From an uncultured Bacillales bacterium (GTDB taxonomy: Bacteria; Bacillota_I; Bacilli_A; RF39; UBA660), in the NCBI GenBank assembly GCA_946412015.1, contig CAMKGA010000004.1, positions 3,858-67,857 on the forward strand: a stretch of DNA of 64,000 nt. Direction: 5' to 3'. The notes under the pieces were generated by a model, which ran no database searches, had not been told where the DNA came from, and worked only from the letters and a program-made list of their open reading frames with translations. A program made the position numbers and the translations under genes. Of the stretch, positions 8,381 through 28,651 are shown piece after piece; positions within the stretch are counted from its first letter, which is position 1; each line of letters starts with the position of its first letter.

Positions 8381-9427
8381 ATGGGTAGTGTAGGAAATAT
8401 TTCTTTATTAGAAGAGTTAAAGAATGAATTTGAAAAAAGAGATACTGCTTTAGAAAAGTTAAGAAATAAAAATCATAATGTTTATTATTCTATAGATTTA
8501 GATTTTTTAAAGAATGTTGATCCAAGGTATAAGAGTATTGCTAATGCTATTATTAATATGTATGATAAAATAGTTCCTATTAAATTATTAACAGATGATA
8601 TAGATACTGCAAAAAAGAATGAGAATACACTTAATACAATATATTTAAATTCTAATAAATTAAAAAAAGAAGTAAAAAAAGATTTAGTTAATGTAGTTGA
8701 TTATGTTGATAGAGTATTTAATAGACTAGATATATCAAATATTAATAAGAGTACTCCTTTAGGTATATATATAATAAATAAATATAATTCTTTAAAAATA
8801 TTTTCGTCTAATATTGATATTCAAAATATAAATAGAGGTATGAAAAATCAATCAGAGAGGTTAATTGGGATAAAAGAATTACAGCAATTAATAGAGCAGT
8901 ATAATAAAATAAATTCTATATATAATAAAGATAATACAAAAAATTTTATTAATAATTTATATTATATATTAGGTAATTATATACATTTACTTACAAATCA
9001 AGAATATGAATATACTAAAGAAGCAATAAAAAAGTTATTATCATATCAGTTTAATTTTATAGATAAATATATTTATACATATAAAATTATAGTTTCTAAA
9101 ATATGGCATAGTGATGAATTAAATATGAAATTTGTATGTAATTTAGATTTAGATGATGATAATGTATATATTATGTTTAATAATAATGTTGATAAGTATT
9201 GGACTTCGGGATATATTTGTGATGTACCAGAAGATTTCTTTGATTATTTTAAAATAAATGATATTAATATAATTAATTTTCCTTTACCTAAAGATATTAA
9301 AGATAAATATGCATTAAAAATAGGTGATATAAATAATAATAATGTGAGATTTAATGCAATGTATACTAAATACGATAAAATAGATTTTGATAGTTTACTG
9401 CCTGTTGTTTATTTAAATGAAAAATAA
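8381..9427 (+). CDS. hypothetical protein (Asn/Ile-rich, no recognisable domain)
   Basis: ORF with RBS agaggg before ATG 8381; no motif recognised. Confidence 0.3.
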   Translation: MGSVGNISLLEELKNEFEKRDTALEKLRNKNHNVYYSIDLDFLKNVDPRYKSIANAIINMYDKIVPIKLLTDDIDTAKKNENTLNTIYLNSNKLKKEVKKDLVNVVDYVDRVFNRLDISNINKSTPLGIYIINKYNSLKIFSSNIDIQNINRGMKNQSERLIGIKELQQLIEQYNKINSIYNKDNTKNFINNLYYILGNYIHLLTNQEYEYTKEAIKKLLSYQFNFIDKYIYTYKIIVSKIWHSDELNMKFVCNLDLDDDNVYIMFNNNVDKYWTSGYICDVPEDFFDYFKINDINIINFPLPKDIKDKYALKIGDINNNNVRFNAMYTKYDKIDFDSLLPVVYLNEK

Positions 9428-9457
9428 GTAAGATGAATTTATCTTACTTATTTTTTT
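9426..9457. terminator. bidirectional rho-independent terminator between convergent genes
   Basis: Hairpin aagtaagat-gaattt-atcttactt followed by a T-run, between the stops of 8381..9427(+) and 9448..10653(-). Confidence 0.5.
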
Positions 9458-10653
9458 ATTAGTTTATATATTTTTGTTAGAATTGGTTTAAACACTTTTA
9501 CAAAATTATATTTTTTCTTATTTATTATAAGATCATATTCTCCTGCAAATTCTAATATAACAGCGTTATATTTAGATTTAAATTTAGTAAGAGAATCATC
9601 AAGAGTTCCAGATATTCCTCCTAAATTGCAGTAATGACAATTATTTTCAATTGATATTTTAGCAGCTTCTAAAGCAATACCACCAGAGACATTAAGTTTA
9701 TTTAATCTTAAATCATTTCCTGCATATAAGTATTCACTACACCTATACCCATCATTAATTGGTAGTAATAAAAGTGCACTTGATAAAGTTAGTATATCTT
9801 GTTCTTTTAATAATTCTTTTACTTGACTTATTTCATCTTCTTTTCCATTGTTATTATTTAAAAACTCTAAATACTTGTTTAAATCTACTTTTCCAAATAA
9901 AATACAAGCTCTATTTTTAAAGTTATCCACAATTTTGTTGAAATATTCTTCATTTCTTAAATGTATATTTTTATTCTTTTCAGTACATTTTAATAATTGA
10001 ACAAACTCTTTAATATCTTTTTTATCGTGAGAGCATGTAAAAAATACTCCTCTTTTAGTGTGATAATCACCTAAATAATATCTAAATTTACTTTTAAAGT
10101 TTTTAAGTAATTGTTCATAACTTATAAACTTATTATCTTCATCAATTAATGGTACAGCCATTTGATACCTTGGTTGAAAGTTTTTATGAATATCTTTAGT
10201 ATATCCTGTATGAACATAACCTAATTCTATTAAATTATTATGCTTTTTGTGATATTTATTAGAATATATGTTAAAAGAGATATTTTGATTTTTAAAAAGT
10301 TTTTCACTTACGCAAAAGTTAGGGTCTATTTTAACTAAGTAAACTTTTTCATCTTTAGCAACCTTTTTAATATTATCTGTCATAAACTTAAGTAATTCTT
10401 TATTTTCAAAGTCAATCAAATATCCTCTTGGAATATAAAATATTTTAAATCCTTTATACAATGTTCTTTTTAGTATTGAGCATGCGGCAATTAACTTTTT
10501 ATTTTCATAAACACCGCATAATATATTTTTAAAATTGTCTTTAACATTAGCCCAATTACTTTCTTGCATAAAAGATGTATATTCGAATTTTTTTACAAAA
10601 TTATCATATTCTTTTTTTTCTATATTTATTTTGAATGTATACATATATATCAT
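9448..10653 (-). CDS. FemAB-family peptidoglycan interpeptide bridge peptidyltransferase (FemX/MurM-like)
   Basis: 401 aa with the overall FemAB pattern (QESNWANVKD..., C-terminal region). Confidence 0.65.
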   Translation of the reverse strand: MIYMYTFKINIEKKEYDNFVKKFEYTSFMQESNWANVKDNFKNILCGVYENKKLIAACSILKRTLYKGFKIFYIPRGYLIDFENKELLKFMTDNIKKVAKDEKVYLVKIDPNFCVSEKLFKNQNISFNIYSNKYHKKHNNLIELGYVHTGYTKDIHKNFQPRYQMAVPLIDEDNKFISYEQLLKNFKSKFRYYLGDYHTKRGVFFTCSHDKKDIKEFVQLLKCTEKNKNIHLRNEEYFNKIVDNFKNRACILFGKVDLNKYLEFLNNNNGKEDEISQVKELLKEQDILTLSSALLLLPINDGYRCSEYLYAGNDLRLNKLNVSGGIALEAAKISIENNCHYCNLGGISGTLDDSLTKFKSKYNAVILEFAGEYDLIINKKKYNFVKVFKPILTKIYKLIKK

Positions 10654-15837: not shown

Positions 15838-15926
15838 GCCTGAGTGGCGAAATTGGTAGACGCACAGGACTTAAAATCCTGCGGGAGTCAAATCCCGTGC
15901 CGGTTCAAGTCCGGCCTTAGGCACCA
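15838..15926 (+). tRNA. tRNA-Leu (anticodon TAA)
   Basis: Cloverleaf with long variable arm, anticodon loop cttaaaa, acceptor gcctgag/cttaggc, 3' CCA encoded. Confidence 0.85.
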
Positions 15927-15933
15927 TTATATT

Positions 15934-16024
15934 GGAGAAATACCCAAGTCTGGTTGAAGGGACTGGTCTTGAAAACCAGCAGGTCGGAAACGGCGCGGGG
16001 GTTCGAATCCCTCTTTCTCCGCCA
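15934..16024 (+). tRNA. tRNA-Ser (anticodon TGA)
   Basis: Long variable arm, anticodon loop cttgaaa, T-loop gttcgaatc, CCA end. Confidence 0.85.
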
Positions 16025-16039
16025 CTAATATTTTAATAT

Positions 16040-16116
<77 letters not shown>

Positions 16117-16121
16117 ATAAT

Positions 16122-16197
16122 GGTCCCGTGGTGTAGCGGTTATCACGTCTGCCTGTCACGCAGAAGATCGCGAGTTCGATTCTCGTCGGGACCGCCA
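16122..16197 (+). tRNA. tRNA-Asp (anticodon GTC)
   Basis: tgcctgtcacgcag anticodon arm is identical to Firmicute tRNA-Asp; CCA end. Confidence 0.8.
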
Positions 16198-16207
16198 TTA
16201 TTTTTTT

Positions 16208-16283
16208 GGCTCTATAGCTCAGTCGGTAGAGCACAGGACTGAAAATCCTGGTGTCGGTGGTTCAATTCCACCTGGAGCCACCA
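16208..16283 (+). tRNA. tRNA-Phe (anticodon GAA)
   Basis: Anticodon loop ctgaaaa, gctcagtcggtagagc D-arm, CCA end. Confidence 0.85.
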
Positions 16284-16296
16284 TAGAAATAATATA

Positions 16297-16314
16297 GCTG
16301 GCATGCCAGCTTTT
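16297..16314 (+). terminator. intra-array hairpin terminator after tRNA-Phe
   Basis: Perfect palindrome agctggcatgccagct followed by tttt. Confidence 0.45.
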
Positions 16315-16377
16315 AAAAAAGACAAATATTGACTTATTTTAAAAAAAGTGATAACATTAATGATGTCTCGGGGATAC

Positions 16378-16454
16378 GCGCTCGTAGCTCAGCTGGATAG
16401 AGTGTTTGGCTACGAACCAAAAGGTCAGGGGTTCGAATCCCTTCGAGCGCACCA
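16378..16454 (+). tRNA. tRNA-Arg (anticodon ACG)
   Basis: Acceptor gcgctcg/cgagcgc, anticodon loop ctacgaa, CCA end. Confidence 0.85.
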
Positions 16455-16460
16455 TATTAT

Positions 16461-16537
16461 CGGGAAATGGCTCAACTTGGTAGAGCACTTGGTTTGGGAC
16501 CAAGGGGTTGCAGGTTCAAATCCTGTTTTCCCGACCA
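16461..16537 (+). tRNA. tRNA-Pro (anticodon TGG)
   Basis: Acceptor cgggaaa/tttcccg, anticodon loop tttggga, CCA end. Its 3' end is the attachment site of the adjacent island. Confidence 0.85.
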
Positions 16538-16572
16538 TTAAGTTTATAAATCCTTGTATTGCAAGGATTTTA
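16521..16572 (+). repeat. attL: 3' end of tRNA-Pro plus downstream hairpin, direct repeat of 22863..22915
   Basis: tcctgttttcccgaccattaagtttataaatccttgtattgcaaggatttt recurs with about 5 mismatches at 22863..22915. It includes the terminator-like hairpin aatccttg-tatt-gcaaggatt. Confidence 0.65.
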
Positions 16573-16612
16573 TAATAATTTGATATTCATAACCCTTATA
16601 AAACACTTAAAA

Positions 16613-17701
16613 TTATTTGTTTTGTTTCATTTGATTCAAGATGTTGACCGCTTTATCTTCATCTTTAGGAATCATATGAGAATAGGTATTGAGTGTCATA
16701 TTGATATCTGAATGTCCTAAACGTTCGGAAATAACTGTTATAGGGACATTCATTGATAAAAGTAAGGATGCATGACTATGTCTGAAGTCGTGTATTCTTA
16801 TTTTTTTGACCTTAGCTATATCACAATACTTATTCTTCTTTCTACCAATTGTTGATGGTGCTAATGGATTTAATCCACCAAATATAAACCAATTATCATT
16901 GAAATCTACACATTGTTGATAATATTTCTTTAAAAGATTAAGTTTATTAATTAATTCATTATCTAGTTTTACTTTTCTGATACTTTGACTAGTTTTAGGT
17001 GTATTAATAATATGTTTGTTATCAACCATTTCTTTAGAGATAGTTTTATTTATGTCTAAATATCCATCTTTAAAATCATTCCAGTTAAGAGCTAGTGCTT
17101 CACCTTGCCTTAATCCAGTATAGTATAGTGTTTCAAATAAGAATTTATATACTAAATCATCAACACATTTAATAAACTTTTGATATTCTTCTATTGTCCA
17201 AAAATCAACATTTTTAACTAACTCTGTTTTTCTTTTGAAATTACCAGTTAGTGTGGCTACATTTGTTTTTAGTCCATAAAACCTAATAGCATAATTTAAG
17301 ATATTAACCATTGCTCCATGCAAACTAGAATTGTATTTATGTTTAAAACCTTTTTTCTCAATTTCAATTTGCCATTTTAAATAAACACTATTAGTTATTT
17401 TATTAAGTTTATAGTTTTCAAAATATGGTAGTATATGATTTTTAAATCTACTCTCAACTGATCTATATGATTGAGTCTTTAATCTTAATTCTTTATAATT
17501 AGCATATTCTTTCCATAAATCATTAAAAGTCATATTAGAGAAATTAAACTTATCTCCCATTTTAAAATCATATTCAGCTTGTTGAGCTTCCTTTTTGGTA
17601 TTAAATCCTTTTCTCTCAAACTGTTTTCTATTTCCATATACATCATCACAATAGGTTCTAAACTTCCATTTCTTTGTTCTCTTATCTTGATATACCGGCA
17701 T
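16613..17701 (-). CDS. int: tyrosine-type site-specific integrase
   Basis: 362 aa; C-terminal catalytic region ...HDFRHSHASLLL...LGHSDINMTLNTYSHM carries the R-H-R-Y box residues; immediately adjacent to the tRNA. Confidence 0.9.
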   Translation of the reverse strand: MPVYQDKRTKKWKFRTYCDDVYGNRKQFERKGFNTKKEAQQAEYDFKMGDKFNFSNMTFNDLWKEYANYKELRLKTQSYRSVESRFKNHILPYFENYKLNKITNSVYLKWQIEIEKKGFKHKYNSSLHGAMVNILNYAIRFYGLKTNVATLTGNFKRKTELVKNVDFWTIEEYQKFIKCVDDLVYKFLFETLYYTGLRQGEALALNWNDFKDGYLDINKTISKEMVDNKHIINTPKTSQSIRKVKLDNELINKLNLLKKYYQQCVDFNDNWFIFGGLNPLAPSTIGRKKNKYCDIAKVKKIRIHDFRHSHASLLLSMNVPITVISERLGHSDINMTLNTYSHMIPKDEDKAVNILNQMKQNK

Positions 17702-17969
17702 ATTTTAAAGTCCTATTATTTAATTTAACTTCTGTATCTGCCATGCTAATAATATAATCTAAATCAAGACCAAGATATTCAATTACTTTTTTAGTAGGTA
17801 CAAGTATTGTTTTACCACTAGGAAGTTGTTTACCATTTTTAACAATTTCATCGGCTATTACTTTTCTGATTTTAATCGCACTGTTTCTTCCGCAATTAGC
17901 AATTAAAGCAATTTCTTTAATACTTGCCCATGGTTTTGATATAATTTTATATAATTCTAAATTGGACAT
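17682..17969 (-). CDS. small excisionase/DNA-binding (Xis-like) protein
   Basis: ~95 aa ORF upstream of and overlapping int, with a strong RBS aaaggaggtgaagat; helix-turn-helix-like segment. Confidence 0.4.
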   Translation of the reverse strand: MSNLELYKIISKPWASIKEIALIANCGRNSAIKIRKVIADEIVKNGKQLPSGKTILVPTKKVIEYLGLDLDYIISMADTEVKLNNRTLKYAGISR

Positions 17970-18108
17970 ATCTTCACCTCCTTTCTTTTGGAAACTTGTT
18001 TCCAAATACACTATACCACTTTAAAAATATTTTGTCAACTAGTTTCCAAAAAATGTTTGGTTTTTTGATAAGATGTGCTATAATGTAGGTGTTGAGGGAT
18101 GTGAATCA

Positions 18109-18609
18109 ATGAAAAAAAAAGAACAAGAATTAGGGGAATTAGTAAAAAAAGCTAGAGAAGAAAAAGGATTATCAGCACGTAAATTAGCTGAGTTATGTAA
18201 TGTGAGTCATACCGAAATTAATAATATTGAAAAAGGTTTAAGAGTAAAACCTGCTGTACTAACACTTAAAGGTTTTGAAAAATATCTTGATTTACCTTTT
18301 GATAAAATAGCTAAGATGGTTGGGTATTCAGATGTAACTATTGACTTTACAGAAAAGAATATAATTGTATCTTATGAAATGTATGATAAATATGTTCAAC
18401 TCAGAAAAAGTGAAGAAGATAATATGTTACATACAATTGATATTAAAAGACATATGGCAATGGATATAAAAAAATCTTTTAATGAAATATATAATTATTT
18501 AAAAAAACAGCCTGATGTTGATAAAACATTATTGAAAAATGCCGATGAAATTATTGATATGCTAAATATAATTGAATTAAAATATGAACCTATTATTAAA
18601 GAAAAATAA
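18109..18609 (+). CDS. XRE-family HTH transcriptional regulator (island repressor candidate)
   Basis: N-terminal ELVKKAREEKGLSARKLAELCNVSHTEINNIEKG is a classic XRE/Cro-C1 HTH; divergent from int/xis. Confidence 0.75.
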   Translation: MKKKEQELGELVKKAREEKGLSARKLAELCNVSHTEINNIEKGLRVKPAVLTLKGFEKYLDLPFDKIAKMVGYSDVTIDFTEKNIIVSYEMYDKYVQLRKSEEDNMLHTIDIKRHMAMDIKKSFNEIYNYLKKQPDVDKTLLKNADEIIDMLNIIELKYEPIIKEK

Positions 18610-18993
18610 TCGTTATAATAATTAAATGATTATTTTTTTTGTGGGCACTTTTCCCTAAATTATTCAAAAATTACATAAAAAAGCACTGTATTTTTTTAAT
18701 GAGCATAAGATGTTCGCCACCCATTTTCGAGTTCCCACTTATAAATCAAAGGAAAAACTGGGTGGCATTTCTATTTTTGCATTTGCAAAAATGCCGACAT
18801 TTTTAAGGAAAAGTGTCCACTCATTATCAAAAACACCATATATATCAACGAATTTAATGCCTACTAATTTAGTGACAAGTACCGGCAATAGTTAAAATGG
18901 TGTTAAAAAAGTGCTTCCTATAATTTTTTTGAATTGATATAAATATGTTGACAATGATAGTTATTTTTTTATATAATAAATTACCAAGAAAGA

Positions 18994-20883
18994 ATGATTT
19001 GGATGAAAAAATTATTAGAATTAAATGAATTATTAAAGAATTATTTAGATATTGACTTTATATACTGTAATAATGAAATTGCAAAAAAAATAAACAATAG
19101 GATAAAAAAACAATTTACTGTAAGCATGAATTTAGAAGATTTAACAAATAAAGTTTATAAACAAAAAGTAAATTTTGAACCTATTAAAAAAAATACTAGT
19201 GATAGTACGCAAGCTGTATCTGCAAATATTAAAGAATTATTTAAAGAAAAAATTTCCAATCCTGATTTAGTATTGTCTTTAGAAAATTTGGGGTATTCAT
19301 ATGAAACAATAAGTTATTATATTGAGACAGAAGAAGAAAAAATGGAATTAGGAATATATAATGAACCTGTCATCAAATTATCTAATATGATAAGCAAAGC
19401 TCATTTTTTAACTCTTTTAGAGAATATGACAAAAAAAGAAATTGATTTTTCAAAATTAGAATATTTAACTTGGGAAGAAGTTGCACCAGCTTTAAATAGA
19501 GAGGGATATGCTAGCACTTGTAAATGTCATAATCCAAATATTTTTAAGAATATTCAATCAATAGATGGAACAATTTTATGTAAGTATTTAGATTTTACTA
19601 ACTATCAGGGCTATAAATCTGACGATTTTTTTCCAAAAAATATTTATGTTACGATTAATCCTTTAGAATACTTTTATGAAAAATTAAGTCTTTCGGAGAA
19701 ATTAATTTTATTTAATGAATCTTGTACAAATGATATTAAACAATCTATCCCTGAACTAATTGATGAAAATCAAATAATAGAACAGATACTATTAATAATA
19801 AAAGATGAAATTGTAAAAAAAGTGTCTAAATATATAGATTTGATAGACAATAAATATATTAAAGGTAGTGAAAATGGAGTCACTAAATTTGATTTAGATA
19901 TTAATAAATCTCTTGATTTTCATTATATTAATCACTTATCTGAAATATATAAATTAGATGTACCTGAATTCACAATAGAAAGTTTGAAGATATTTAAAAA
20001 TAATATATTGGAGATTGAAAATAATAATTTAAAACATTTTATCAAAAAGCGAGAATTAATTGAAACTGAAAAATTTAAAATTGAAATAAAAAACAAAAAA
20101 AATCAGCTTTGTTTTAAAAAAAATAAATCAGCATTTTTAGAAAAAATAATAGAATTTGAAAGATTATTTGAAAATGGAGAAATTTGTGATCCTGATTGGT
20201 ATTTGGAAGATACAACATATAGATCAATAGAAGTTGAGCACTTAACAACATATATAGATAACATAATATATTGTCTAAAAGCTTTTCTTAATGATGATAC
20301 AGAAACGCTGAAAGAAAATCAATTTAATCTTGAATTTGTTAGTGATAATCTAGATTATATTGAAAGAATGTGTAACGAATATATGAGTTATGACCCCCAA
20401 AAGTTTTATGTTGGGAACATTGACAATTTTTATGAATATGGCAAATGGGATAAGTTGCCTTATCAAGAAATAAAATTAATTATTAAATATATTAAAAGCG
20501 AAATGCCTTTTCTTAATGATTATAAAAATGGTCTGTATTCTAATGATACAACTAAAACTCTAGATGAACAAGAAGATAATTGTAATACAAATATTTACAA
20601 TATTGAACGAAAGATCAATTATGACATAGAACAAAATATAAGATTTATTTGTGATGAAATAGAAAAGAATTCTAATATTTATGATGCTTTAACAAATATA
20701 ATTGGTTTACTAGATACTATTAATAAGCCTAATATATTTAATGAAACTATAATTGAACAATTATATGAATTATTGAAAGTGTATGGAATGTTAAGTAATA
20801 GAAAAATTTCTGTTGAATGCGGTATTAATAAGGGACAAAAAGAATCAATACAAAAAGTCTTGATGATAAAAGATAATAAATAA
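18994..20883 (+). CDS. hypothetical 629-aa island cargo protein, no recognisable domain
   Basis: Long ORF with its own TTGACA-N18-TATAAT promoter (18949..18978), located just upstream of Abi_2 inside the island. Confidence 0.3.
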   Translation: MIWMKKLLELNELLKNYLDIDFIYCNNEIAKKINNRIKKQFTVSMNLEDLTNKVYKQKVNFEPIKKNTSDSTQAVSANIKELFKEKISNPDLVLSLENLGYSYETISYYIETEEEKMELGIYNEPVIKLSNMISKAHFLTLLENMTKKEIDFSKLEYLTWEEVAPALNREGYASTCKCHNPNIFKNIQSIDGTILCKYLDFTNYQGYKSDDFFPKNIYVTINPLEYFYEKLSLSEKLILFNESCTNDIKQSIPELIDENQIIEQILLIIKDEIVKKVSKYIDLIDNKYIKGSENGVTKFDLDINKSLDFHYINHLSEIYKLDVPEFTIESLKIFKNNILEIENNNLKHFIKKRELIETEKFKIEIKNKKNQLCFKKNKSAFLEKIIEFERLFENGEICDPDWYLEDTTYRSIEVEHLTTYIDNIIYCLKAFLNDDTETLKENQFNLEFVSDNLDYIERMCNEYMSYDPQKFYVGNIDNFYEYGKWDKLPYQEIKLIIKYIKSEMPFLNDYKNGLYSNDTTKTLDEQEDNCNTNIYNIERKINYDIEQNIRFICDEIEKNSNIYDALTNIIGLLDTINKPNIFNETIIEQLYELLKVYGMLSNRKISVECGINKGQKESIQKVLMIKDNK

Positions 20884-20946
20884 AATCTATAATTTATGGA
20901 GACTAGATTTATTGTATCATTTCTTAAAAATTTTTTGAAAAATGAT

Positions 20947-20974
20947 TTGACATTTGGTCAAAATAGTGTATAAT
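20947..20974 (+). promoter_or_regulatory. sigma-A-like promoter of Abi_2 gene
   Basis: TTGACA at 20947-52, 16-nt spacer, TATAAT at 20969-74. Confidence 0.45.
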
Positions 20975-20981
20975 TATATTT

Positions 20982-21020
20982 AATTGGTACTCAGGAAACT
21001 TTCGAAGCCCTGAGTCAATT
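20982..21020 (+). repeat. 39-bp element with internal 6-7 bp hairpin, upstream copy flanking Abi_2
   Basis: aattggtactcaggaaactttcgaagccctgagtcaatt; near-identical copy at 21936..21974. Confidence 0.6.
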
Positions 21021-21040
21021 TTATATATGGGGGCATAAAA

Positions 21041-21907
21041 ATGAAGGAATATAAAAGCAATGAAGAATTATTAGAATATTTAATATCTAAAGGTGTTAGT
21101 GTTAAAAATAAGAAAGTAGCTTTAGATAAAATAGAAAGATATACGTATTATTGTATTGTAAACACTTATAAAGAAGTATTTAAAGAAGATAATAAGTATA
21201 TTGATGATGTTACATTTGAAGAAATATATGCCCTATATGATTTTGATAAGAGTTTAAAGAATATATTTTTAAAATATATATTGGAAATAGAACAAGTTGT
21301 TAAAGCTCTTATAGCTAATACTGTATCAGAGAAATATGGCATTAAAGATTATTTAACATATAATTGTTTCAATCAAAAAATAAATCAAGATGTTATAGAT
21401 GAAATGATATTAAAAATAGATGATGAAATAAGTAAAAACTATGGTAAACATGCTGCAATAACACATTATAAAGATACATATGGTTTTATCCCGCCTTTTG
21501 TATTAGTTAAAATAATGACAATAGGACAGATAAGTAGATATTATGGAATATTAAAACAAGAAGATAGACAAAAGGTTAGTAAATATTTTAAAATATCTGA
21601 TAAATTACTAAAACAAATACTTCTAAATATTACTTTAGTTCGTAATTTCTGTGCTCACAATAATAGATTATATACATTTCATAGTAAATTCTTTATTAGT
21701 TTTAAATCAATAGATACATCATATAATAGTGCTAATAAAACAACTAATCTTTATATGATTATGAAATGTATGGAATTGTTATTAGATAAAAAAAGGAAGA
21801 AACAATTTATAAATCAAATTAATAAAGAAATAAATAAATTAGATAAAAAGTTAAATGTTATAGATATAAGAATTATTTTAAAGATTATGGGTTTCCCATG
21901 TGAATAA
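21041..21907 (+). CDS. Abi_2 family abortive-infection protein (AbiD/AbiF-like)
   Basis: 288 aa; the N-terminal region matches the Abi_2 family pattern (...EELLEYLISKGVSV...YCIVNTYKEVF...); second paralog at 36545..37468. Confidence 0.7.
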   Translation: MKEYKSNEELLEYLISKGVSVKNKKVALDKIERYTYYCIVNTYKEVFKEDNKYIDDVTFEEIYALYDFDKSLKNIFLKYILEIEQVVKALIANTVSEKYGIKDYLTYNCFNQKINQDVIDEMILKIDDEISKNYGKHAAITHYKDTYGFIPPFVLVKIMTIGQISRYYGILKQEDRQKVSKYFKISDKLLKQILLNITLVRNFCAHNNRLYTFHSKFFISFKSIDTSYNSANKTTNLYMIMKCMELLLDKKRKKQFINQINKEINKLDKKLNVIDIRIILKIMGFPCE

Positions 21908-21935
21908 TTATTTATAATTTGAATATAATAATAGT

Positions 21936-21974
21936 AATTGGTATTTAGGAAACTTTTGAAGCCCTAAGTCAATT
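21936..21974 (+). repeat. 39-bp element, downstream copy flanking Abi_2
   Basis: aattggtatttaggaaacttttgaagccctaagtcaatt; 35/39 identical to 20982..21020 with a compensatory pair change in the stem (ctcagg/cctgag to tttagg/cctaag). Confidence 0.6.
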
Positions 21975-22057
21975 ATTCCTTAATTTTCTAATATGAAAAT
22001 TAAGGTTTTTTTAGAATTTAAAAAGAAGAAACGAATTCTTCTTATAATAAGCATATG

Positions 22058-22723
22058 CTAATATTCTAAATCAATATCTTGATTAATTAATTCTAAATTA
22101 TTGTAAATAGAATGTTTAAAATAACTATATTGATTTTCGATTACCTTACCATATTCATCCAATTTATTATTTAATTTATAATGTCTAATAATATAATTAA
22201 TTACTGTTATTATTTGTGTATAATTATATTCTTTTAATAACTCAGTAAATATATTATCATAATTTGTTAAATTAATATCAGTATCTTTTATAAAGCCTTT
22301 TCTAACTAATTCTAATGTTAAACTATGGTGAATAGTTTTATCTATTTTATCTTTGTTATTATTGCTTTGTATATTAGTATTTAGTAGTGATTTGTTATCG
22401 GTACACCCTTTATCCGTGAACCCTTTAGGGTATTGTGGTGTTTCATAAATATCATATTGATAATTGATTCTACCTTTTTCATCATGTGTTTTTTCTCTTA
22501 TTAAATAACAATTATCTTCTAATTCTTTTAATGTTGATTGTATAGCTTTCTTTCCTTCTTTGCACATTCCAACTAATCCATTAACAGAATATATCCAATC
22601 ATCAGGTAAACTTAACATCATTGATAGTAATCCTTTAGTCTTTAATGATAATTTTTTATCTCTTAAATGATAGTTAGACATCACTGTATAGTTCTTTGTT
22701 TTATTAATTCTAAATACTGCCAT
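22058..22723 (-). CDS. replication-initiator-like HTH protein (RepA_N / DnaD-like N-terminal domain)
   Basis: N-terminus MSNYHLRDKKLSLKTKGLLSMMLSLPDDW...LKELEDNCYL resembles Firmicute plasmid/PICI replication-initiator N-terminal domains. Confidence 0.4.
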   Translation of the reverse strand: MAVFRINKTKNYTVMSNYHLRDKKLSLKTKGLLSMMLSLPDDWIYSVNGLVGMCKEGKKAIQSTLKELEDNCYLIREKTHDEKGRINYQYDIYETPQYPKGFTDKGCTDNKSLLNTNIQSNNNKDKIDKTIHHSLTLELVRKGFIKDTDINLTNYDNIFTELLKEYNYTQIITVINYIIRHYKLNNKLDEYGKVIENQYSYFKHSIYNNLELINQDIDLEY

Positions 22724-22862
22724 AAATTACTCCTCTCCAGCCCTTATCTAGCCCCTTAAAAATTCTTTCTTTAAGCGTTTTAAGCAGAAATGAGTAGTAA
22801 TGAAACGTAAAAAACCTACTATTTTCTGTAGGTTATGTAATATCAAATTATTTTATATTTTC

Positions 22863-22915
22863 TCCTGTTTTCCCGACCATTTAGTTTATAAACCTTGTAT
22901 AACAAGGTTTTTTCT
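22863..22915 (+). repeat. attR: direct repeat of tRNA-Pro 3' end
   Basis: tcctgttttcccgaccatttagtttataaaccttgtataacaaggtttttt, copy of 16521..16572. Confidence 0.65.
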
Positions 22916-23005: not shown

Positions 23006-23128
23006 GTTACTGATACTAGAATTATAATAAATAATGTGATAAAATTATTTTGTAAAATAAAACAGTACAGTTTTGTTTTATAATTTCTCTTTTATTCAAA
23101 TTTTTATTTTGAAAGGATGGTAGATTTT

Positions 23129-24175
23129 ATGAATAAGAATAAAAGAAAAGGATTCACATTAATAGAACTAATAGCAGTTCTAGTAATACTAGCAATTCTT
23201 GCATTAATAGTAACACCACTAGTTATGAATATTATAAGAAAAGCTAGAATTTCAGCGGATAAAAGAAGTATTGATGCATACGGAAGAAGTGTTGAGTATG
23301 CAATAGCTACATATTTACTAGATAACGGAAAGTTCCCAACAAGTATAGAAGAGCTAACGATAGAATATACAGGAGATGAAGTAGTATGTTCAACATCTAA
23401 GCTTAATTCTGATTCTTCAGTATATCTAGCTGGATGTACTGTAGCAGGAAGAAGTGTAGATTATACATATGGTAGTGAAGAGTCTATCGTATATGATGTA
23501 TATCAAAAAGGAGATACAGTAACATATAATGGAATGAATTTCCACGTAATAAAAGATAGTGGAACAAGTCAAGATTATGTTACATTATTATTAGATACTC
23601 CGTTGACTGCAACTGAGGTTAATACATATGGAGGAGTAGGAACAGCAAATAACCATGTAAATATGCATGTAACTTCTAATACAAATGCATCATATTACCA
23701 AAAAGCATATGATTATAATAGTGCAGGCTATTTAGCATTCTACTCAAGTGAAACTTGTGGATATGATAGTAATAACAATTGGGTAACTACTGGATGTAAT
23801 AATAATTATGCAGATAGTGATATAAAATATGTAGTAGATGCTTGGGCGTTAGATAAAACAACCTCAAGTGATTTAAAAGAAATAGATGGATATAAAGCAA
23901 GAATGATAACATATGATGAATTAACAGATGAGCTAGGATATGAAAAAGCATCAAGTGGAACAATAATGCCATCAAGTAATGGTGATACACCAAACTGGGT
24001 ATGGAATTCAGGAAATAACGCTGGATATTGGACAATGAGTGGGGTAGCAGATAGCACTGACCGTGCCTGGTATGTTATTGGTGATGGCGGGCTTAACAAC
24101 AACAACGTGCGCTACGGCAACTACAGCTACGGGTCTGTTCGCCCAGTTATAAATCTCTTGAAATCTGCCATCTAG
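23129..24175 (+). CDS. type IV pilin/pseudopilin-like protein with large C-terminal domain
   Basis: N-terminal prepilin signal KRKGFTLIELIAVLVILAILALIV (G/FTLIE methylation motif). The C-terminal ~90 aa share a motif block with two modules of the 1906-aa protein (…YW…G…VRPVI…). Confidence 0.65.
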   Translation: MNKNKRKGFTLIELIAVLVILAILALIVTPLVMNIIRKARISADKRSIDAYGRSVEYAIATYLLDNGKFPTSIEELTIEYTGDEVVCSTSKLNSDSSVYLAGCTVAGRSVDYTYGSEESIVYDVYQKGDTVTYNGMNFHVIKDSGTSQDYVTLLLDTPLTATEVNTYGGVGTANNHVNMHVTSNTNASYYQKAYDYNSAGYLAFYSSETCGYDSNNNWVTTGCNNNYADSDIKYVVDAWALDKTTSSDLKEIDGYKARMITYDELTDELGYEKASSGTIMPSSNGDTPNWVWNSGNNAGYWTMSGVADSTDRAWYVIGDGGLNNNNVRYGNYSYGSVRPVINLLKSAI

Positions 24176-24768: not shown

Positions 24769-25263
24769 TTATTTAAATATTGTAAGTTTTTTTATAGGAT
24801 TATCTTTAATTTTTCTTTTTGAAAGATAATCTTTTTTTATGTTTGAAATGTTATATAGTTTATTTATTGAATTTGTTATTTTTATTTTTGTATCTTCATC
24901 TATATTATTTTTATTATATAAATATTTTTTTATAATTGTTGGATTTACTCCTGTTATTTTTTTGCACATTTCTGAAAAATATTCTAACGAATTAAAACCA
25001 CTTATTAGTGCGATATTTAACATATTGTTATTGCTTGTTTCTATAGATTTAATTGTGTTATATATTTTAAGTGAATTAATATAATCTGTAATCGTTAAAC
25101 CTATTTCTTTTTTAAATAATTTCATTATGTAATATCTATTATAATAAAATTTTTCTTCTAATGTTTGAATAGATATTTTATGTTTTAAATTATCATTTAT
25201 ATAAATTAAAATGTTACAAATAAGTTCATTTGAAAACATATTATCACCAATTATAATATACAT
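24769..25263 (-). CDS. AraC-family HTH domain protein
   Basis: The C-terminal half has AraC-type HTH features (…YFSEMCKKITGVNPTIIKKY). Confidence 0.5.
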   Translation of the reverse strand: MYIIIGDNMFSNELICNILIYINDNLKHKISIQTLEEKFYYNRYYIMKLFKKEIGLTITDYINSLKIYNTIKSIETSNNNMLNIALISGFNSLEYFSEMCKKITGVNPTIIKKYLYNKNNIDEDTKIKITNSINKLYNISNIKKDYLSKRKIKDNPIKKLTIFK

Positions 25264-25349
25264 TATATATTTGTTAGAGTCAATATACCACTATTGTTTA
25301 AATGTAATATTAATATCTAGTATATACTGAGTGTGAAAGGAGAGATAAT

Positions 25350-26639
25350 ATGTTAGAATCACATTTTGAAACTACAGAAAATATGAAAAAGTATGTACCA
25401 TTAATACCGGTTAACAAGAATTCTAAAATTAATAATTCAGGTGTTTATATGTGCTATGATGATGAGAATATTTATATTGATAAAAAGTTTAACAATAATT
25501 TAATTATTGGAGAGGGTGGAAGTGGTAAGACACAAGCAGTAACTTTGCCATTATTAAAAACATCACTTTTAGCAACCGAATCTGTAATTGTAACTGATTT
25601 AGGTGGTGATATATATAAAAATATGCATGACGAGTTTGAGAAGAATGGTTATACTAATTTAGTTTTAAACTTTGATAATCCACGTAATGGGGATAGGTGG
25701 AACCCATTTTCTTTAATTACTAAATTATATAAAAATAAAGATTATGATCTAGCGCAAGAAGCAATTGAAAATTTAGGATTTTCTTTAATTAGAGAAAGAA
25801 CAGATAATACTAATGATCCGTTTTGGGAAAATTCTGCTGTAAACTTTTTTTCGGGACTTGTATTATATGCGCTTGAAAATAATATTGATTTAACTTTTGA
25901 TGCGTTACAAGATATAGAAAATAAGATTGATGAAAATAGTAGTGAATTTATTAATTCTTTAGATAAAAAAGATCCGTCATATATAAATTTAGTTGGAATA
26001 TTAAATGCACCAAATGAAACAAGAGGAAGTATTATTTCTGTATTTAATCAGAAAATTAAATCGTTTTTTAGTAAAATAGATTTAAAAAATATGTTATCAG
26101 ATGCCAATTTTGATTATGATAAATTATTAAATAGCAAAACTATTGTTTATTTAATACCAGGAGTAACTACAGTATCTGAAAGATTAATATCACTTTTTGT
26201 AAGTCAATTTGCGTATGTAAAAAGGATTTTTAAAAGCACACTTAAATACAATATTATATTAGATGATTTTTATAATATGAATTATATAAAAAATATTGTA
26301 AATATTATTAATAATTCAAAATCTTTTGGAATGAAGTTTACTATTACAGTAGGTGGTTTTAATGAGATTAATAATATATATGGTAAGGAACAAGCAAATT
26401 TATTAAAGGCATGTTTTAATAATATTATATATTTATTATCATCTGATATTGAAACACTTGAAGAAGTTAGTAAGATGTGTGGTAGTAAAAGTAGCGATGG
26501 TAAAATGTTGCCGCTAGTATCGGTATCTGAGTTAAAAACATTAAAAATGTTTGAAGCAATTATTTTAGCTCAAAGAGTTATGCCTTATAAAACTAAGTTA
26601 TGTCCATATTATAAATTAACTGAAAATGGTATATTTTAA
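25350..26639 (+). CDS. type IV secretion coupling protein (TraG/VirD4/TcpA-like) ATPase domain, N-terminally truncated relative to canonical T4CPs
   Basis: Walker A IIGEGGSGKTQ, the NP..GDRWNPF block, and Walker B/ATPase C-region NIILDDFYNM...GMKFTITVGGFNEINNIYG all match the T4CP soluble domain. No N-terminal TM segments, 429 aa. Confidence 0.55.
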   Translation: MLESHFETTENMKKYVPLIPVNKNSKINNSGVYMCYDDENIYIDKKFNNNLIIGEGGSGKTQAVTLPLLKTSLLATESVIVTDLGGDIYKNMHDEFEKNGYTNLVLNFDNPRNGDRWNPFSLITKLYKNKDYDLAQEAIENLGFSLIRERTDNTNDPFWENSAVNFFSGLVLYALENNIDLTFDALQDIENKIDENSSEFINSLDKKDPSYINLVGILNAPNETRGSIISVFNQKIKSFFSKIDLKNMLSDANFDYDKLLNSKTIVYLIPGVTTVSERLISLFVSQFAYVKRIFKSTLKYNIILDDFYNMNYIKNIVNIINNSKSFGMKFTITVGGFNEINNIYGKEQANLLKACFNNIIYLLSSDIETLEEVSKMCGSKSSDGKMLPLVSVSELKTLKMFEAIILAQRVMPYKTKLCPYYKLTENGIF

Positions 26640-26707
26640 GCTAAGTAATTAGCTTTTTTTTTTATATTAATTAGTGTATAATTGTATATAGGAAAGTTGG
26701 TATTAAG

Positions 26708-27736
26708 ATGAATTACATAGGCTCTAAACATTCAATAATTAATTTTTTAGAAGAATCTATTATTGATTTTACAAATAAAGAAGGTAAAGTATTTTGTGAC
26801 ATATTTGCAGGAACTGGAGTTGTTGGAAAAAGGTTTAAAAAACTTGGTTATGATATAATTGCTAATGATACACAGTTTTATAGTTTTGTTTTAAATAAAC
26901 ATTATTTAGAGAATAACAATAACTTATTATTTTCTAAGCTAAAATTAAAAGGAATACAGGATGTATTTATATATTTAAATAAACTTAATAATTATCAAGG
27001 GTTTATTTATAATAATTATACTAGTATTGGAACTATTAACGATAAATATGAAAGAAACTATTTTACTATAGAGAATGCTATTAAAATTGATTCAATGAGA
27101 GATCAAATAGAAAAGTGGTATAAAAAAGAATATATTGATAAAAATGAATATTATTATTTACTTGTTTGTTTAATTGAAGCTGCAGATAAGGTAGCAAATA
27201 CTGCATCAGTATATGAAGCTTTTTTAAAGAATATAAAAAAGAGTGCGCAAAAAACTATAGAGATTAAACCGCTTGAAATAGTTATAAATAAAAATACTAA
27301 ATCTAAAGTTTTTATTGAGGATTCTAATGAGTTAATAAAAGAAATAAAGGGAGATATTTTATATTTAGATCCTCCATATAACTCTAGAAGATATAGTTCT
27401 AATTATCACATACTTGAAACAATAGCTTATGGAGATAATCCTATTATTAAAGGAAAAACTGGAATTAGAAAAGAGAGTATCTCATCAAAATATAATAAAA
27501 AAAATGAAGTAGCTAAGGCTTTTGAAGATTTGATTGCTAATGCTAAATTTAAATATATATTTTTAAGTTATAATGATGAAGGAATTATGAGTTTTAAAGA
27601 AATAGAAGAAATTATGAGTAAATATGGTAAGTATAAAAGATATGAGACTAATCATAAAAGATATAAGGCTAGTAAAAATAAAGAAGTAGGAAAGAAGACA
27701 ACTATTGAATATTTACATGCTTTAAAAAAAGAATGA
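26708..27736 (+). CDS. Dam-class (D12) N6-adenine DNA methyltransferase
   Basis: MNYIGSKHSIINF start, FAGTG SAM motif I, DPPY catalytic motif IV (LYLDPPYNSR). Confidence 0.85.
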   Translation: MNYIGSKHSIINFLEESIIDFTNKEGKVFCDIFAGTGVVGKRFKKLGYDIIANDTQFYSFVLNKHYLENNNNLLFSKLKLKGIQDVFIYLNKLNNYQGFIYNNYTSIGTINDKYERNYFTIENAIKIDSMRDQIEKWYKKEYIDKNEYYYLLVCLIEAADKVANTASVYEAFLKNIKKSAQKTIEIKPLEIVINKNTKSKVFIEDSNELIKEIKGDILYLDPPYNSRRYSSNYHILETIAYGDNPIIKGKTGIRKESISSKYNKKNEVAKAFEDLIANAKFKYIFLSYNDEGIMSFKEIEEIMSKYGKYKRYETNHKRYKASKNKEVGKKTTIEYLHALKKE

Positions 27737-27782
27737 TAATATAATAAAAGTATATAAAAATAATAAATATAATAATAGAAAA

Positions 27783-28651
27783 GTAAAGAAGGTAAGAACT
27801 TTTAAAAAGAGAGCACTCGCTCTTACAGGAATTGGTATTTTAGTTTTATGTGGAATTAATATTGCTAAAACTAATGTAGAAGAGGATGAAACAAAGATAG
27901 TTGTGACTATTGATGAAGATAATAAAAAAAATAAAAATATTAATACTAACGTAAATAATCCAATAATTGATCCGTTTAAAGTTGGTTCTTTAAGTGTTAG
28001 AGAAGTAAATGATTGTTTATATGGACCACTTGGGAGGTATTTTTATGAATATGCTGATATGTATGATGTAGATGCTAATTTAATGTGTGCTATTGCTATG
28101 CAAGAATCATCTTTAAACCATAAGGCTTGTATTCCTAGAGTCTGGATATGGAGTAGGACTTATGCAATTAGAAAGTCCATCTGGGGAGGAGATTAGAGCT
28201 TATAATTATAAAACCGGACAGATAGATACAGAATATATTACAATGGATGAAGCTTGTGATATTATTAAGAATATTAAAATTGGCTGTATGATTTTTCAAA
28301 ATAGTTTGAATTATAATAATGGTAATGTATTTAGCTATACAGTCACATAACTATGGTCCTGGAATGACTGATTTGGTTTTAACAAGTGCGTATGGTAATT
28401 CTGATGATATAAAAGATGATTATACAAACTACAAATGGGTAGAATATATGAAGGATGCTCATGAAAACCCTTGGAAATACTTACCTGATTGGAAAGAAAG
28501 TAAATATGTAGATGGAAATTATGTTAGTAATGTTTTAAGATTTTTTCCAAGTGATAAAGTAAAGTATAATTATGATGGTAAAAGAATTTGCCTAAATTTA
28601 AAAACAATGAAAGTAGAAAGTAAGATAGATTTGAATTCAAAAATAAAATAA
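27783..28651 (+). pseudogene. lytic transglycosylase (SLT domain, VirB1-like), disrupted by two frameshifts and lacking an in-frame ATG
   Basis: Signal/TM-like RTFKKRALALTGIGILVLCG in one frame and the SLT motif AIAMQESSLNHKA. The text then continues as SGYGVGLMQLESPSGEE in a second frame and MVMYLAIQSHNYGPGMTD... in a third (ORFs 27903..28196, 28162..28350, 28319..28651). Confidence 0.6.

Follow-up and report, generated by a model that had tools for sequence, protein, structure and literature searches.

A small tRNA-Pro-integrated island with AbiF defence cargo and its probable origin among integrative and mobilizable elements of gut and rumen Bacilli

What kind of element occupies the 3′ end of a tRNA-Pro gene in the 64-kb stretch of DNA analysed here (the window), and what does it carry? 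The island in question, of 6.34 kb, spans positions 16521–22915 and had been described from the letters alone, in what is called here the original prediction, as a 'phage-satellite/PICI-like or minimal integrative element' (PICI, phage-inducible chromosomal island). Its six listed open reading frames (ORFs), namely a tyrosine integrase, an Xis-like protein, an XRE-family regulator, a 629-aa protein, an Abi_2 protein and a Rep-like protein, exist where they were placed, and most of their annotations hold. The comparisons presented below favour, with a probability of roughly 0.7, a relaxase-less derivative of a family of integrative mobilizable elements (IMEs) integrating at tRNA-Pro, equipped with AbiF defence cargo, over a phage satellite. 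The minimal integrative element with anti-phage cargo is thus the half of the original description that stands, and the PICI layout is the half that is not supported, since there are no packaging, capsid or primase genes and the relatives carry a MOBV relaxase and TnpV.

Insertion at the tRNA-Pro gene

The site and edges of the island are defined by the following features.

16461–16537 (+): tRNA-Pro(UGG), the integration target (ARAGORN, tgg; Rfam tRNA, 68.4 bits)
16521–16572 (no strand): attL, the final 17 nt of the tRNA followed by an element-borne P′ arm with a terminator hairpin
22863–22915 (no strand): attR, the 17-nt tRNA 3′ end once more, with a flank that contains a terminator hairpin
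22813–22834 (−): terminator-like hairpin at the element edge, facing inward-reading chromosomal transcription

The tRNA-Pro(tgg) gene is the last member of a seven-tRNA cluster (15838–16537, + strand; ARAGORN) downstream of mreB. The attachment (att) repeat comprises the last 17 nt of this tRNA and about 35 nt beyond it, including a terminator hairpin. A repeat of about 50 bp at these two positions was the starting point of the original prediction and is confirmed: over its full length, with one indel, 47 of 56 columns are identical in a global alignment, and the repeat finder gives 29 of 30 for the core (16521–16550 against 22863–22892). Re-inspection finds the second copy in place at 22863–22915. 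With up to three mismatches allowed, the 30-mer occurs exactly twice in the window, and shuffled sequences lead one to expect 0.00 occurrences. The hairpins of the repeat extension are CCTTGTATTGCAAGG and CCTTGTATAACAAGG, the one at attL reading AATCCTTGTATTGCAAGGATTTT and the one at attR AACCTTGTATAACAAGGTTTTTT. The P′ arm ATTTAGTTTATAAAGCCTTGTATTTCAAGGCTTTTATAAT is kept beside the integrase gene in L097–L101 (L-numbers denote the database loci compared), which belong to different hosts; the element therefore carries its own terminator hairpin for the tRNA operon, and the P′ arm of attL re-terminates that operon. On the other side, attR is identical in L083, L084 and L085, and the hairpin at 22813–22834 may act as an insulator. 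From these edges, the empty site is predicted to read GGTTCAAATCCTGTTTTCCCGACCATTTAGTTTATAAACCTTGTATAACAAGG across its junction and the excised circle TTATATTTTCTCCTGTTTTCCCGACCATTAAGTTTATAAATCCTTGTATTGCAAGG.

Sister species provide the reference against which the insertion can be seen. The MreB protein of the window retrieves metagenome-assembled genomes of uncultured low-GC Bacilli, 'Erysipelotrichaceae' and 'Tenericutes' from rumen and gut, and the host is an uncultured low-GC rumen or gut member of the Bacilli. The closest species-level genomes (L003 and L005, with MreB 95–96% identical) have the upstream genes and the seven-tRNA cluster in common with the window, and in these two, as in L034, the cluster is free of the island. 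Directly after tRNA-Pro, both L003 and L005 carry a 247-aa ORF, which scores as a member of the MvaI_BcnI family in L005, and neither has an integrase gene at the locus. Because the sister species have the same locus without an integrase, the island is an insertion relative to them, which is the outcome of the comparison of relatives' tRNA-Pro loci that the original prediction had proposed: the locus is there, and the island genes are not. In L005, the gene that follows the MvaI_BcnI gene is a homologue of the pilin-like gene found in the window at 23117–24175. The MvaI_BcnI gene was also considered as a possible element gene, as it recurs beside Rep in relatives; this was rejected, because L005 carries it beside an unoccupied tRNA-Pro, which makes it a native neighbour.

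Copies of the island occur in at least 12 contigs from different samples, with 98–100% protein identity (most at 99% or above), and all of those that reach the chromosomal flank sit at this one tRNA-Pro; samples holding the island include ERZ27280288, ERZ28613433, ERZ1029115 and SRR22585827. The original proposal is supported in so far as it describes a discrete integrative element, bounded by att sites at tRNA-Pro, with anti-phage cargo of the AbiD/AbiF type. The opposite view would be that of an ancestral, non-mobile chromosomal cluster next to a tRNA-end repeat that arose by chance or duplication. It could appeal to the absence of a GC contrast with the flanks and to the failure to find an empty site in the same species. 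Nevertheless, a 30-mer repeat is not expected by chance, the sister species lack the genes at this locus, and the same integrase, attL arm and Rep surround different cargo in unrelated contexts, so that this explanation is effectively refuted.

A backbone in common with relaxase-bearing elements

Two blocks of the island make up what may be called its backbone: the integrase, Xis-like and divergent XRE genes on one side, and a winged-helix replication initiator on the other.

16613–17701 (−): tyrosine integrase, 362 aa, with arm-binding, SAM-like and catalytic domains (phrog_1, 5.8e-74)
17682–17969 (−): Xis-like protein, 95 aa, presumed Xis or recombination directionality factor (the mechanical ORF extends to 18011)
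17970–18108 (no strand): divergent promoter/operator region between the Xis-like and XRE genes
18073–18609 (+): XRE-family helix-turn-helix (HTH) regulator, 178 aa (HTH_3, 6.4e-12; phrog_8, phrog_3)
18610–18947 (no strand): spacer, 338 nt, with no recognisable gene or RNA
22058–22723 (−): Rep-like winged-helix (wHTH) replication-initiator-like protein, 221 aa, with an N-terminal domain of the phage-type replisome organiser/DnaD-like kind

The integrase matches the Pfam domains Phage_integrase, SAM_3 and Arm-DNA-bind_4 (E 5.4e-20, 4.1e-13 and 2.2e-08), and its catalytic motifs appear intact (R198 in YYTGLRQGE, HDFR at 304–307, LGH at 328–330 and Y340). Its gene is overlapped by 20 nt by the Xis-like ORF, which is called as a 95-aa gene in L085 and L109. 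The regulator, presumed to be a repressor of the excision module, likely starts at the ATG at 18109, behind GAGGGA. A leftward promoter (18038–18010) matches the consensus at 11 of 12 positions and has an extended TG; around it, GTTTCCAAA occurs twice (17998 and 18042), and the position of these copies suggests that they serve as operators. The spacer beyond the regulator has small ORFs without a match in the four profile libraries used (Pfam, PHROGs, PADLOC and NCBIfam) and no Rfam match. The GC content of the whole 385-nt gap between the XRE and 629-aa genes (18610–18993) is slightly higher, at 0.273, and backbone homology to sibling elements stops at about 18552, just before this gap.

The Rep-like protein had been called RepA_N-like, an assignment that was not borne out: there is no match to Pfam RepA_N (PF06970), and the sole Pfam match is to HTH_36 (1.4e-05; 25.3 bits against a cut-off of 25). 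It matches PHROG replication-initiator families (phrog_4707, 1.5e-23; phrog_428; phrog_186). In its AlphaFold2 (AF2) model (pLDDT, the per-residue confidence score, 74), the N-terminal domain resembles RctB domain 1, DnaD-N and primosome DnaB at weak E-values, and the fold search returned generic wHTH matches, including a RepA–DNA structure (5kbj) at E 0.09; a search of PDB sequences gave no match. Full-length homologues number more than 7800, IMG/VR holds at least 569 relatives, and the gene is 72% identical at the nucleotide level to that for the 'replication initiation protein' of a C. innocuum phage (phage Maintenon).

The informative comparison came from elements that carry related Rep proteins. 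Contexts were sampled from five Rep lineages, arranged as follows.

Window type (P0010), Rep 100%: Rep, Abi_2, 629 aa, XRE, Xis, Int; no relaxase
L097–L102, Rep 58%: Rep, TnpV, 105 aa, Mob_Pre relaxase (about 457 aa), variable cargo on the other strand, XRE, 95 aa, Int
L202–L205, Rep 54%: Rep, Mob_Pre, one cargo gene, XRE, Xis, Int; only about 5.4 kb
L199, Rep 54%: Rep, seven cargo genes, XRE, Xis, Int; no relaxase
L093–L096, Rep 62%: degenerate, with a truncated integrase fragment alone beside Rep

The full form of the family thus runs attR, Rep, TnpV, a small ORF, the Mob_Pre relaxase, variable cargo, XRE, Xis, Int and attL; TnpV and Mob_Pre of the relatives are confirmed by Pfam. The island has homologous backbone genes in the same order as L097–L102 and L202–L205, the same tRNA-Pro(UGG) site and the same attL arm. 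Amino acid identities to L097–L102 are 85–86% for Int (L097–L101), 67–72% for the Xis-like protein, 52% for XRE and 58% for Rep. In L097–L101, wherever a locus extends to the integrase end, that end adjoins tRNA-Pro(tgg), and the element is delimited by the same 17-nt repeat together with the conserved P′ arm; L102 stops inside the integrase gene, and the Rep-side repeat alone is visible there. At the DNA level, the blocks in common with L097, L098 and L100 are 22912–22065 (attR and rep, 74%) and 18552–16401 (the 3′ end of XRE, xis, int and attL, 80%). Between these blocks, there is no similarity to the TnpV/Mob_Pre/oriT region of these three relatives (oriT, origin of transfer). The same integrase, attL arm and Rep enclose different cargo at tRNA-Pro in unrelated chromosomal contexts. 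The cargo slot, from Mob_Pre or Rep to XRE, holds gene sets that differ between the lineages in L097–L102, L199 and L202–L205. Its contents include Abi_2 with small unknowns (Abi_2 in L100 and L102), three unknowns beside a radical-SAM gene, a pair of unknowns each about 300 aa long, an MFS/EamA set and a set made up of a 434-aa gene and an HTH gene. In L098, a full relaxase-bearing element occupies the mreB/tRNA-Pro site of a related host. At 8950–9861 of the same locus lie a decayed second integrase and an Xis-like gene, both fragmented, with 41–58% amino acid identity and an attL-type arm of their own; they lie in tandem beside the Rep end of the full IME, so that L098 is a tandem accretion of two family members. 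Apparently, the tRNA-Pro elements form a very large, undescribed family in uncultured gut and rumen Bacilli; no description of it was found in the literature consulted.

These relatives bear directly on the question of a phage satellite of the PICI or PICMI type (PICMI, phage-inducible chromosomal minimalist island), which would be induced by a helper phage, replicate through a phage-type Rep and be packaged in helper capsids, with AbiF and the 629-aa protein directed against competing phages or the helper. The small size and the layout of integrase, divergent regulator and replication gene do resemble minimal satellites, an integrase-overlapping gene is typical of PICMIs (PMC10803314), the N-terminal domain of the Rep-like protein is common in phage genomes (the IMG/VR relatives and phage Maintenon), and streptococcal 'satellite prophages' of the Javan series have Abi_2 genes near the integrase. 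However, Pfam and PHROG scans of all ORFs found no terS, capsid-size redirection, ppi, head, packaging, primase or helicase gene; of the genes in the PICMI model, only the integrase is present, the mandatory AlpA (PF05930/PF12728) and primase (DUF3987/DUF5906) being absent (PMC10803314). The size of 6.34 kb contrasts with about 10–18 kb for PICIs, and replication would depend on a 221-aa wHTH initiator-like protein with no primase–helicase module. IMG/VR yielded no close relative of Abi_2, and no phage or satellite record resembles the whole island. Above all, a MOBV relaxase and TnpV, which are genes of conjugative mobilization, are found in the closest relatives, whose att site is the same and whose integrase is 86% identical. 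A satellite is therefore considered improbable. In whole-island comparisons with plasmids and phages, matches were limited to short integrase or Rep segments; those to 'Dulem virus' records were rejected, as these are inoviruses with only a related recombinase in common.

Much of the same evidence applies to a degenerate prophage, in which integrase, Xis, a cI-like repressor, a replication initiator and a moron Abi gene would have been left once the structural genes had been deleted. The left arm of temperate phages does likewise contain Int, Xis, XRE and a phage-type replication initiator, all PHROG matches are to phage families, and Abi_2 is a common prophage moron. Yet both att sites are intact, and the compact 5–10-kb architecture is conserved in many independent hosts, in which structural genes were never seen. 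Full-length relatives carry Mob_Pre and TnpV instead of phage modules, and Rep lies at the far end by attR and reads inward, unlike in a lambdoid left arm. This origin is regarded as very improbable.

If the island belongs to an IME family, the next question is whether it can still move. It has the recombinase and att sites of its own that define a canonical IME and, also in keeping with that definition, no complete set of type IV secretion system (T4SS) genes, none of the six ORFs being T4SS-related; its own relaxase and oriT are missing. Relaxase, coupling-protein and T4SS domains were not found in any island ORF with the four profile libraries. With the family backbone and att site but no relaxase of its own, the island is therefore, in the terms of Guedon et al. 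(2017; PMC5704250), a relaxase-less mobile genomic island (MGI) or a decaying IME. The same review defines IMEs and describes relaxase-less MGIs, tandem accretion and the presence in IMEs of phage-type replisome organisers (PMC5704250). In the proposed cycle, the XRE protein would repress the leftward promoter of Xis and int; upon derepression, Int and Xis would recombine attL with attR inside the 17-nt tRNA segment and release a circle, which the Rep-like protein would keep replicating. Int would then return the circle to tRNA-Pro, where the P′ arm would restore the tRNA 3′ end and supply a terminator. Lacking a relaxase and oriT of its own, the island would start no conjugative transfer by itself and would be vertically inherited, or decaying, or moved only with help, which could come from a cryptic oriT nicked in trans, from tandem co-transfer with a full IME at the same site or from transduction. 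Downstream of XRE, the cargo slot holds two independently promoted units, the AbiF/AbiD module and the 629-aa orphan.

A more specific version of this cycle is that of a still-mobilizable, non-canonical IME ('mobile genomic island'), whose cryptic oriT would be nicked by the relaxase of a helper integrative and conjugative element, plasmid or sibling IME. Relaxase-less IMEs and MGIs with only an oriT are documented (PMC5704250), the relaxase-less architecture recurs in the family (the window type and L199), and siblings carrying Mob_Pre integrate at the same att site and can form tandems, as in L098. A gene for a VirD4-like coupling protein lies 2.4 kb downstream (25350–26639), and the identity of 98–100% among at least 12 island contigs contrasts with 92–98% for the adjacent pilin-like gene. 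This contrast is weak evidence for transfer, however, as the pilin-like gene may be hypervariable for another reason (a diversity-generating retroelement, DGR, lies beside it in L084). Furthermore, no oriT-like feature was identified, and there is no DNA similarity to the TnpV–Mob_Pre intergenic region of the relatives, the expected home of a MOBV oriT. Ongoing mobilization of this kind is thus judged unlikely, though not far-fetched.

Several observations weigh against the proposed descent from a tRNA-Pro IME family with AbiF cargo. The GC content of the island (0.237) does not contrast with that of its flanks (0.25) and gives no independent compositional support. The flanking proteins of the sister species on which the insertion conclusion is built are only about 55–70% identical, compared with 95–96% for MreB. 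No empty site from the same species, excised circle or attP junction was found, and an exact scan of JGI metagenomes gave 0 matches to the attB/attR 45-mer. Contigs with an identical MreB mostly stop at or before the end of tRNA-Pro, and only L109 continues into the island; in three independent metagenome contigs of this kind, the end lies at most 2 nt from the tRNA 3′ end (L110 and L111) or about 6 nt short of it (L112). Contig ends at the att site are consistent with assembly-graph branching, that is, with heterogeneity of the population, and this is suggestive only. Another contig (the end of L001/L086) stops just past attR. The flank of attR resembles the element's own attL arm, whereas elsewhere the Rep-side flank is specific to the host (L097, L099–L102); the repeat is therefore about 53 nt long here, compared with 17–22 nt in other hosts. 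This flank could be explained by the scar that a previous element left behind (the tandem remnant of L098 offers a comparison) or by a signature of the host of origin. The MvaI_BcnI gene, the native follower of tRNA-Pro (in L003 and L005, and past attR in L097 and L202), is absent from the window, which, together with the attL-like flank, suggests an earlier integration and decay event at the site.

The backbone and cargo add further points on this side. The Xis-like ORF matches no family in the four libraries, so that the earlier label holds as far as the presence of an ORF and not as a family assignment; its role is presumed from its position, overlapping int and conserved beside it in relatives. 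The Rep assignment stays putative, being drawn from weak fold and profile matches, and nothing convincing in the way of iterons or an origin was found near or in rep. The only feature resembling iterons is a 15-nt tandem pair (TTATCGGTACACCCT and TTATCCGTGAACCCT, at 22395–22424), which falls within the Rep-like gene, in its low-confidence linker. Mob_Pre is present in two of the five sampled Rep lineages and two intact-looking lineages lack it, so that the relaxase module of the island may have been lost or may never have been acquired. Lastly, the toxicity of Abi_2 and its neutralisation by the hairpins described below are proposed by analogy with AbiF systems.

The AbiF module and the 629-aa orphan

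The cargo of the island consists of two transcription units on the same strand.

18948–18977 (+): promoter of the 629-aa gene, sigma-70 type, TTGACA-18-TATAAT, 12/12
18994–20883 (+): 629-aa orphan cargo protein, with an N-terminal mixed alpha/beta region and a C-terminal long-helix region
20947–20974 (+): Abi_2 promoter, TTGACA-16-TATAAT, 12/12 consensus
20980–21023 (+): 5′ hairpin copy, presumed RNA antitoxin or attenuator, with a 7-bp stem, AAA internal loop and CUU/AAG mini-stem (covariance model R1, 66.6 bits, E 2e-15)
21041–21907 (+): Abi_2/AbiD-AbiF family HEPN protein, 288 aa (Pfam Abi_2 PF07751, 8.8e-41; PADLOC AbiD, 3.3e-54)
21934–21977 (+): 3′ hairpin copy (covariance model R1, 64.1 bits), 27 nt past the Abi_2 stop and directly before the terminator
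21978–22005 (+): intrinsic terminator of the Abi_2 transcript, 11-bp stem and T run; fold z-score −3.86 together with the 3′ hairpin

The Abi_2 annotation of the original prediction is upheld by both profile matches. The Rx4H motif of HEPN proteins is found as RNFCAH at residues 201–206, with R201 and H206 invariant in the homologue alignment (A4), and the protein aligns to PbAbiF (PDB 8VZ6; E 3.6e-14), RNFCAH corresponding to RNSCCH. AbiD/F proteins are HEPN RNase toxins that are neutralised by an upstream non-coding RNA acting in cis, and they constitute a type III toxin–antitoxin system; AbiF–ncRNA systems are also the proposed ancestor of Cas13 (PMC12373285, PMC12737573, PMC13064643). A distant Abi_2 gene, 30% identical and without the hairpin motif, lies about 8 kb downstream of the same tRNA-Pro in the related genome L034 (14551–15438), and the tRNA-Pro neighbourhood seems to be a recurrent location of defence genes.

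The gene is flanked by a pair of hairpins that came to light as a 40-nt direct repeat (20981–21020 and 21935–21974; repeat finder). The 5′ copy, which begins about 6 nt past the −10 element of that gene's promoter, has a short U tract behind it. Four differences separate the two copies, two of which keep the stem paired (C-G to U-A and C-G to U-G). Among 80 loci with Abi_2 homologues at 49–75% identity, the pair is present around essentially every homologue, in the order consensus promoter, hairpin, ribosome-binding site, ORF, hairpin. Over 35 distinct hairpins, 92% of cells are paired and 11 of 15 pairs have changed on both sides; the observed covariation score was reached by 0 of 500 shuffles. 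Essentially all hairpins keep the 7-bp stem paired, using up to four pair types, and the loop AAACU(U)UNGAAGC is nearly invariant (invariant loop, AAACUUUNGAAGC). A covariance model found 149 copies in the 80 loci, all on the strand of the gene and located about 60 nt upstream and about 30–90 nt downstream of the ORF; in the window, it found the two copies only. It detected no hairpin beside the Abi_2 genes of L034, L100 and L102, which are distant (about 30% identical), nor any in the C. difficile phage CD2301. The two copies of one locus, 5′ and 3′, represent differentiated subtypes and not homogenised duplicates.

This hairpin is missed by the existing Rfam model. Besides the tRNAs, Rfam gave no match in the island, and the abiF model (RF03085) detected nothing at E ≤ 10, either in the window or in the 13 homologous loci scanned. 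As a positive control, the same model was applied to phage CD2301, where it found the two known motifs upstream of abiF at 26.6 and 19.5 bits, below the gathering score of 37. In their consensus, CCCGCC-A-AGC...GCU-CAAAUC-GGCGGG, the internal loop lies on the opposite side. By analogy with these systems, the hairpin is most likely a type III toxin–antitoxin RNA that binds and silences an AbiF dimer. The 5′ hairpin and its U tract would yield a short antitoxin RNA by partial termination, processing or both; the full-length mRNA would bear a hairpin at either end, the dimer would bind two hairpins, and it would be freed once infection shuts off transcription of the module. In known type III systems the repeats stand in tandem upstream, unlike in this repeat–gene–repeat layout. 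An ORF-flanking arrangement may already have been reported; the known descriptions cited here concern upstream RNAs.

Hairpins with the same loop and with different, fully paired stems were also seen in IMG/VR phage contigs (L103, 2444–2486, −; L106, 13169–13210, −). Both lie in a 5′ untranslated region (UTR), in L106 just downstream of a promoter, and both are upstream of non-Abi genes, encoding a phage exonuclease (phrog_284) and a 132-aa unknown. They could represent a phage-borne antitoxin decoy or a more general 5′UTR element.

The 629-aa gene has the strong promoter of its own that the original prediction had assigned to it (the 12/12 consensus listed above). Its product has no match in the four profile libraries, and sequence searches returned three matches among 5.8 billion clustered proteins and seven among 1.84 billion representatives. 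These are mostly near-identical copies or fragments; of the two weak distant matches, one is a junk repeat and the other a 557-aa relative at 27% identity, and the contigs of distant homologues are too short for context. The structure prediction suggested earlier was carried out. The AF2 model, based on a seven-sequence alignment, has a pLDDT of 56.5, with a beta-containing N-terminal part and a long helical C-terminal half, and Foldseek against the PDB returned coiled-coil noise alone (best E 0.33), so that the protein remains an orphan. From its place in the slot downstream of XRE, which elsewhere holds Abi_2 and other genes, the protein is tentatively credited with another defence or competition function, at close to an even chance.

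A bolder picture would combine a new RNA-antitoxin family for one AbiD/AbiF clade located in both UTRs of the toxin mRNA, such that the dimer binds or processes its own message at both ends, with phage decoys, a new stand-alone defence protein of 629 aa and a 'hitcher' island helped by its siblings. As a conjunction of all these parts, it is somewhat doubtful.

Neighbourhood, meaning and known systems

Beyond attR, the chromosome has features of its own. The pilin-like protein (23117–24175) has an N_methyl signal and the C-terminus ...YGSVRPV and is the most variable flank, with 92–98% amino acid identity; its exact sequence is not on record elsewhere. In L084, a DGR (RVT_1 and bAvd) and an HTH_38 protein are located between attR and the pilin-like gene (1356–4848), and the pilin-like protein may be the target of this DGR. 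Farther downstream in the window, beyond the island and the pilin-like gene, come an AraC-type regulator (24769–25263, −), the VirD4/TraG-like coupling protein of 429 aa (25350–26639), a Dam-like D12 methyltransferase (26708–27736) and an SLT lytic transglycosylase that appears split in the window (27903–28196 and 28319–28651) and is one 308-aa gene in L083. The block from 24769 to 28651, which is absent from L005, may be the remnant of a conjugative element.

As such, the island is ordinary: a small tRNA-integrated element with defence cargo. Its importance lies in what it leads to, namely a very large and apparently undescribed family of 5–10-kb tRNA-Pro elements (more than 7800 Rep homologues), whose slot between XRE and Rep/Mob is a compact hotspot of defence genes and a convenient place to mine for new ones, such as the 629-aa orphan. 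The coexistence of relaxase-bearing and relaxase-less siblings at one att site offers a natural system in which to study how 'hitcher' islands persist and move. The most interesting content is the AbiF module, with a hairpin RNA that the Rfam abiF model misses and two differentiated copies around the ORF, followed by the 629-aa orphan. A distinct RNA partner and layout in one AbiF clade bears on how repeat RNAs diversified, given the view of Cas13 ancestry, and is directly testable.

How does the island compare with known systems? Tn4451/Tn4453-type mobilizable transposons combine TnpV with a Mob/Pre protein, as do the relatives of the tRNA-Pro family; their recombinase is the large serine enzyme TnpX, tRNA genes are not their target, and the window element has neither TnpV nor Mob. 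Closer are those Firmicutes IMEs in which a tyrosine integrase is combined with a MOBV (Mob_Pre) relaxase (reviewed by Guedon et al., 2017, PMC5704250, and by Coluzzi et al., 2017, PMC5357655); they resemble it in integration at a tRNA 3′ end, small size, the set of int, xis, regulator and phage-type replisome-organiser gene, a variable cargo slot and tandem accretion (L098). In contrast to these, the window copy has no relaxase, TnpV or recognisable oriT, which places it outside the canonical IME definition. Relaxase-less MGIs, decayed IMEs and cis-mobilizable elements (CIMEs; PMC5704250) are likewise bounded by att sites without a relaxase, and mobilization by a sibling in trans or in cis would be possible. 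However, known MGIs have a demonstrated oriT that mimics that of the helper, and none was identified in the island, whereas CIMEs have lost the integrase and the island keeps an apparently intact int/xis pair. PICIs, including the Staphylococcus aureus pathogenicity islands (SaPIs), and PICMIs (PMC10803314) have in common with it the integrase, a small gene overlapping int, a divergent regulator, a replication gene, small size and anti-phage cargo. The island differs from them in the lack of packaging or capsid-redirection genes, primase and AlpA, in its 6.3 kb compared with 10–15 kb for PICIs, and in its relatives, which are conjugative hitchhikers. As for the cargo, PbAbiF–AbiFr (PDB 8VZ6), the C. 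difficile AbiF–RCd22 system (PMC12373285) and RF03085 are alike in an Abi_2/HEPN protein with Rx4H and a hairpin of about 40 nt at the 5′ end of the transcript, behind a consensus promoter. The window hairpin differs in sequence and in having its internal loop on the 5′ side (AAA) instead of the 3′ side (CAAAUC), and its copies flank the ORF, in the 5′UTR and 3′UTR, instead of standing in tandem upstream. The number of hairpin copies per locus, two, matches a dimer that binds two RNAs.

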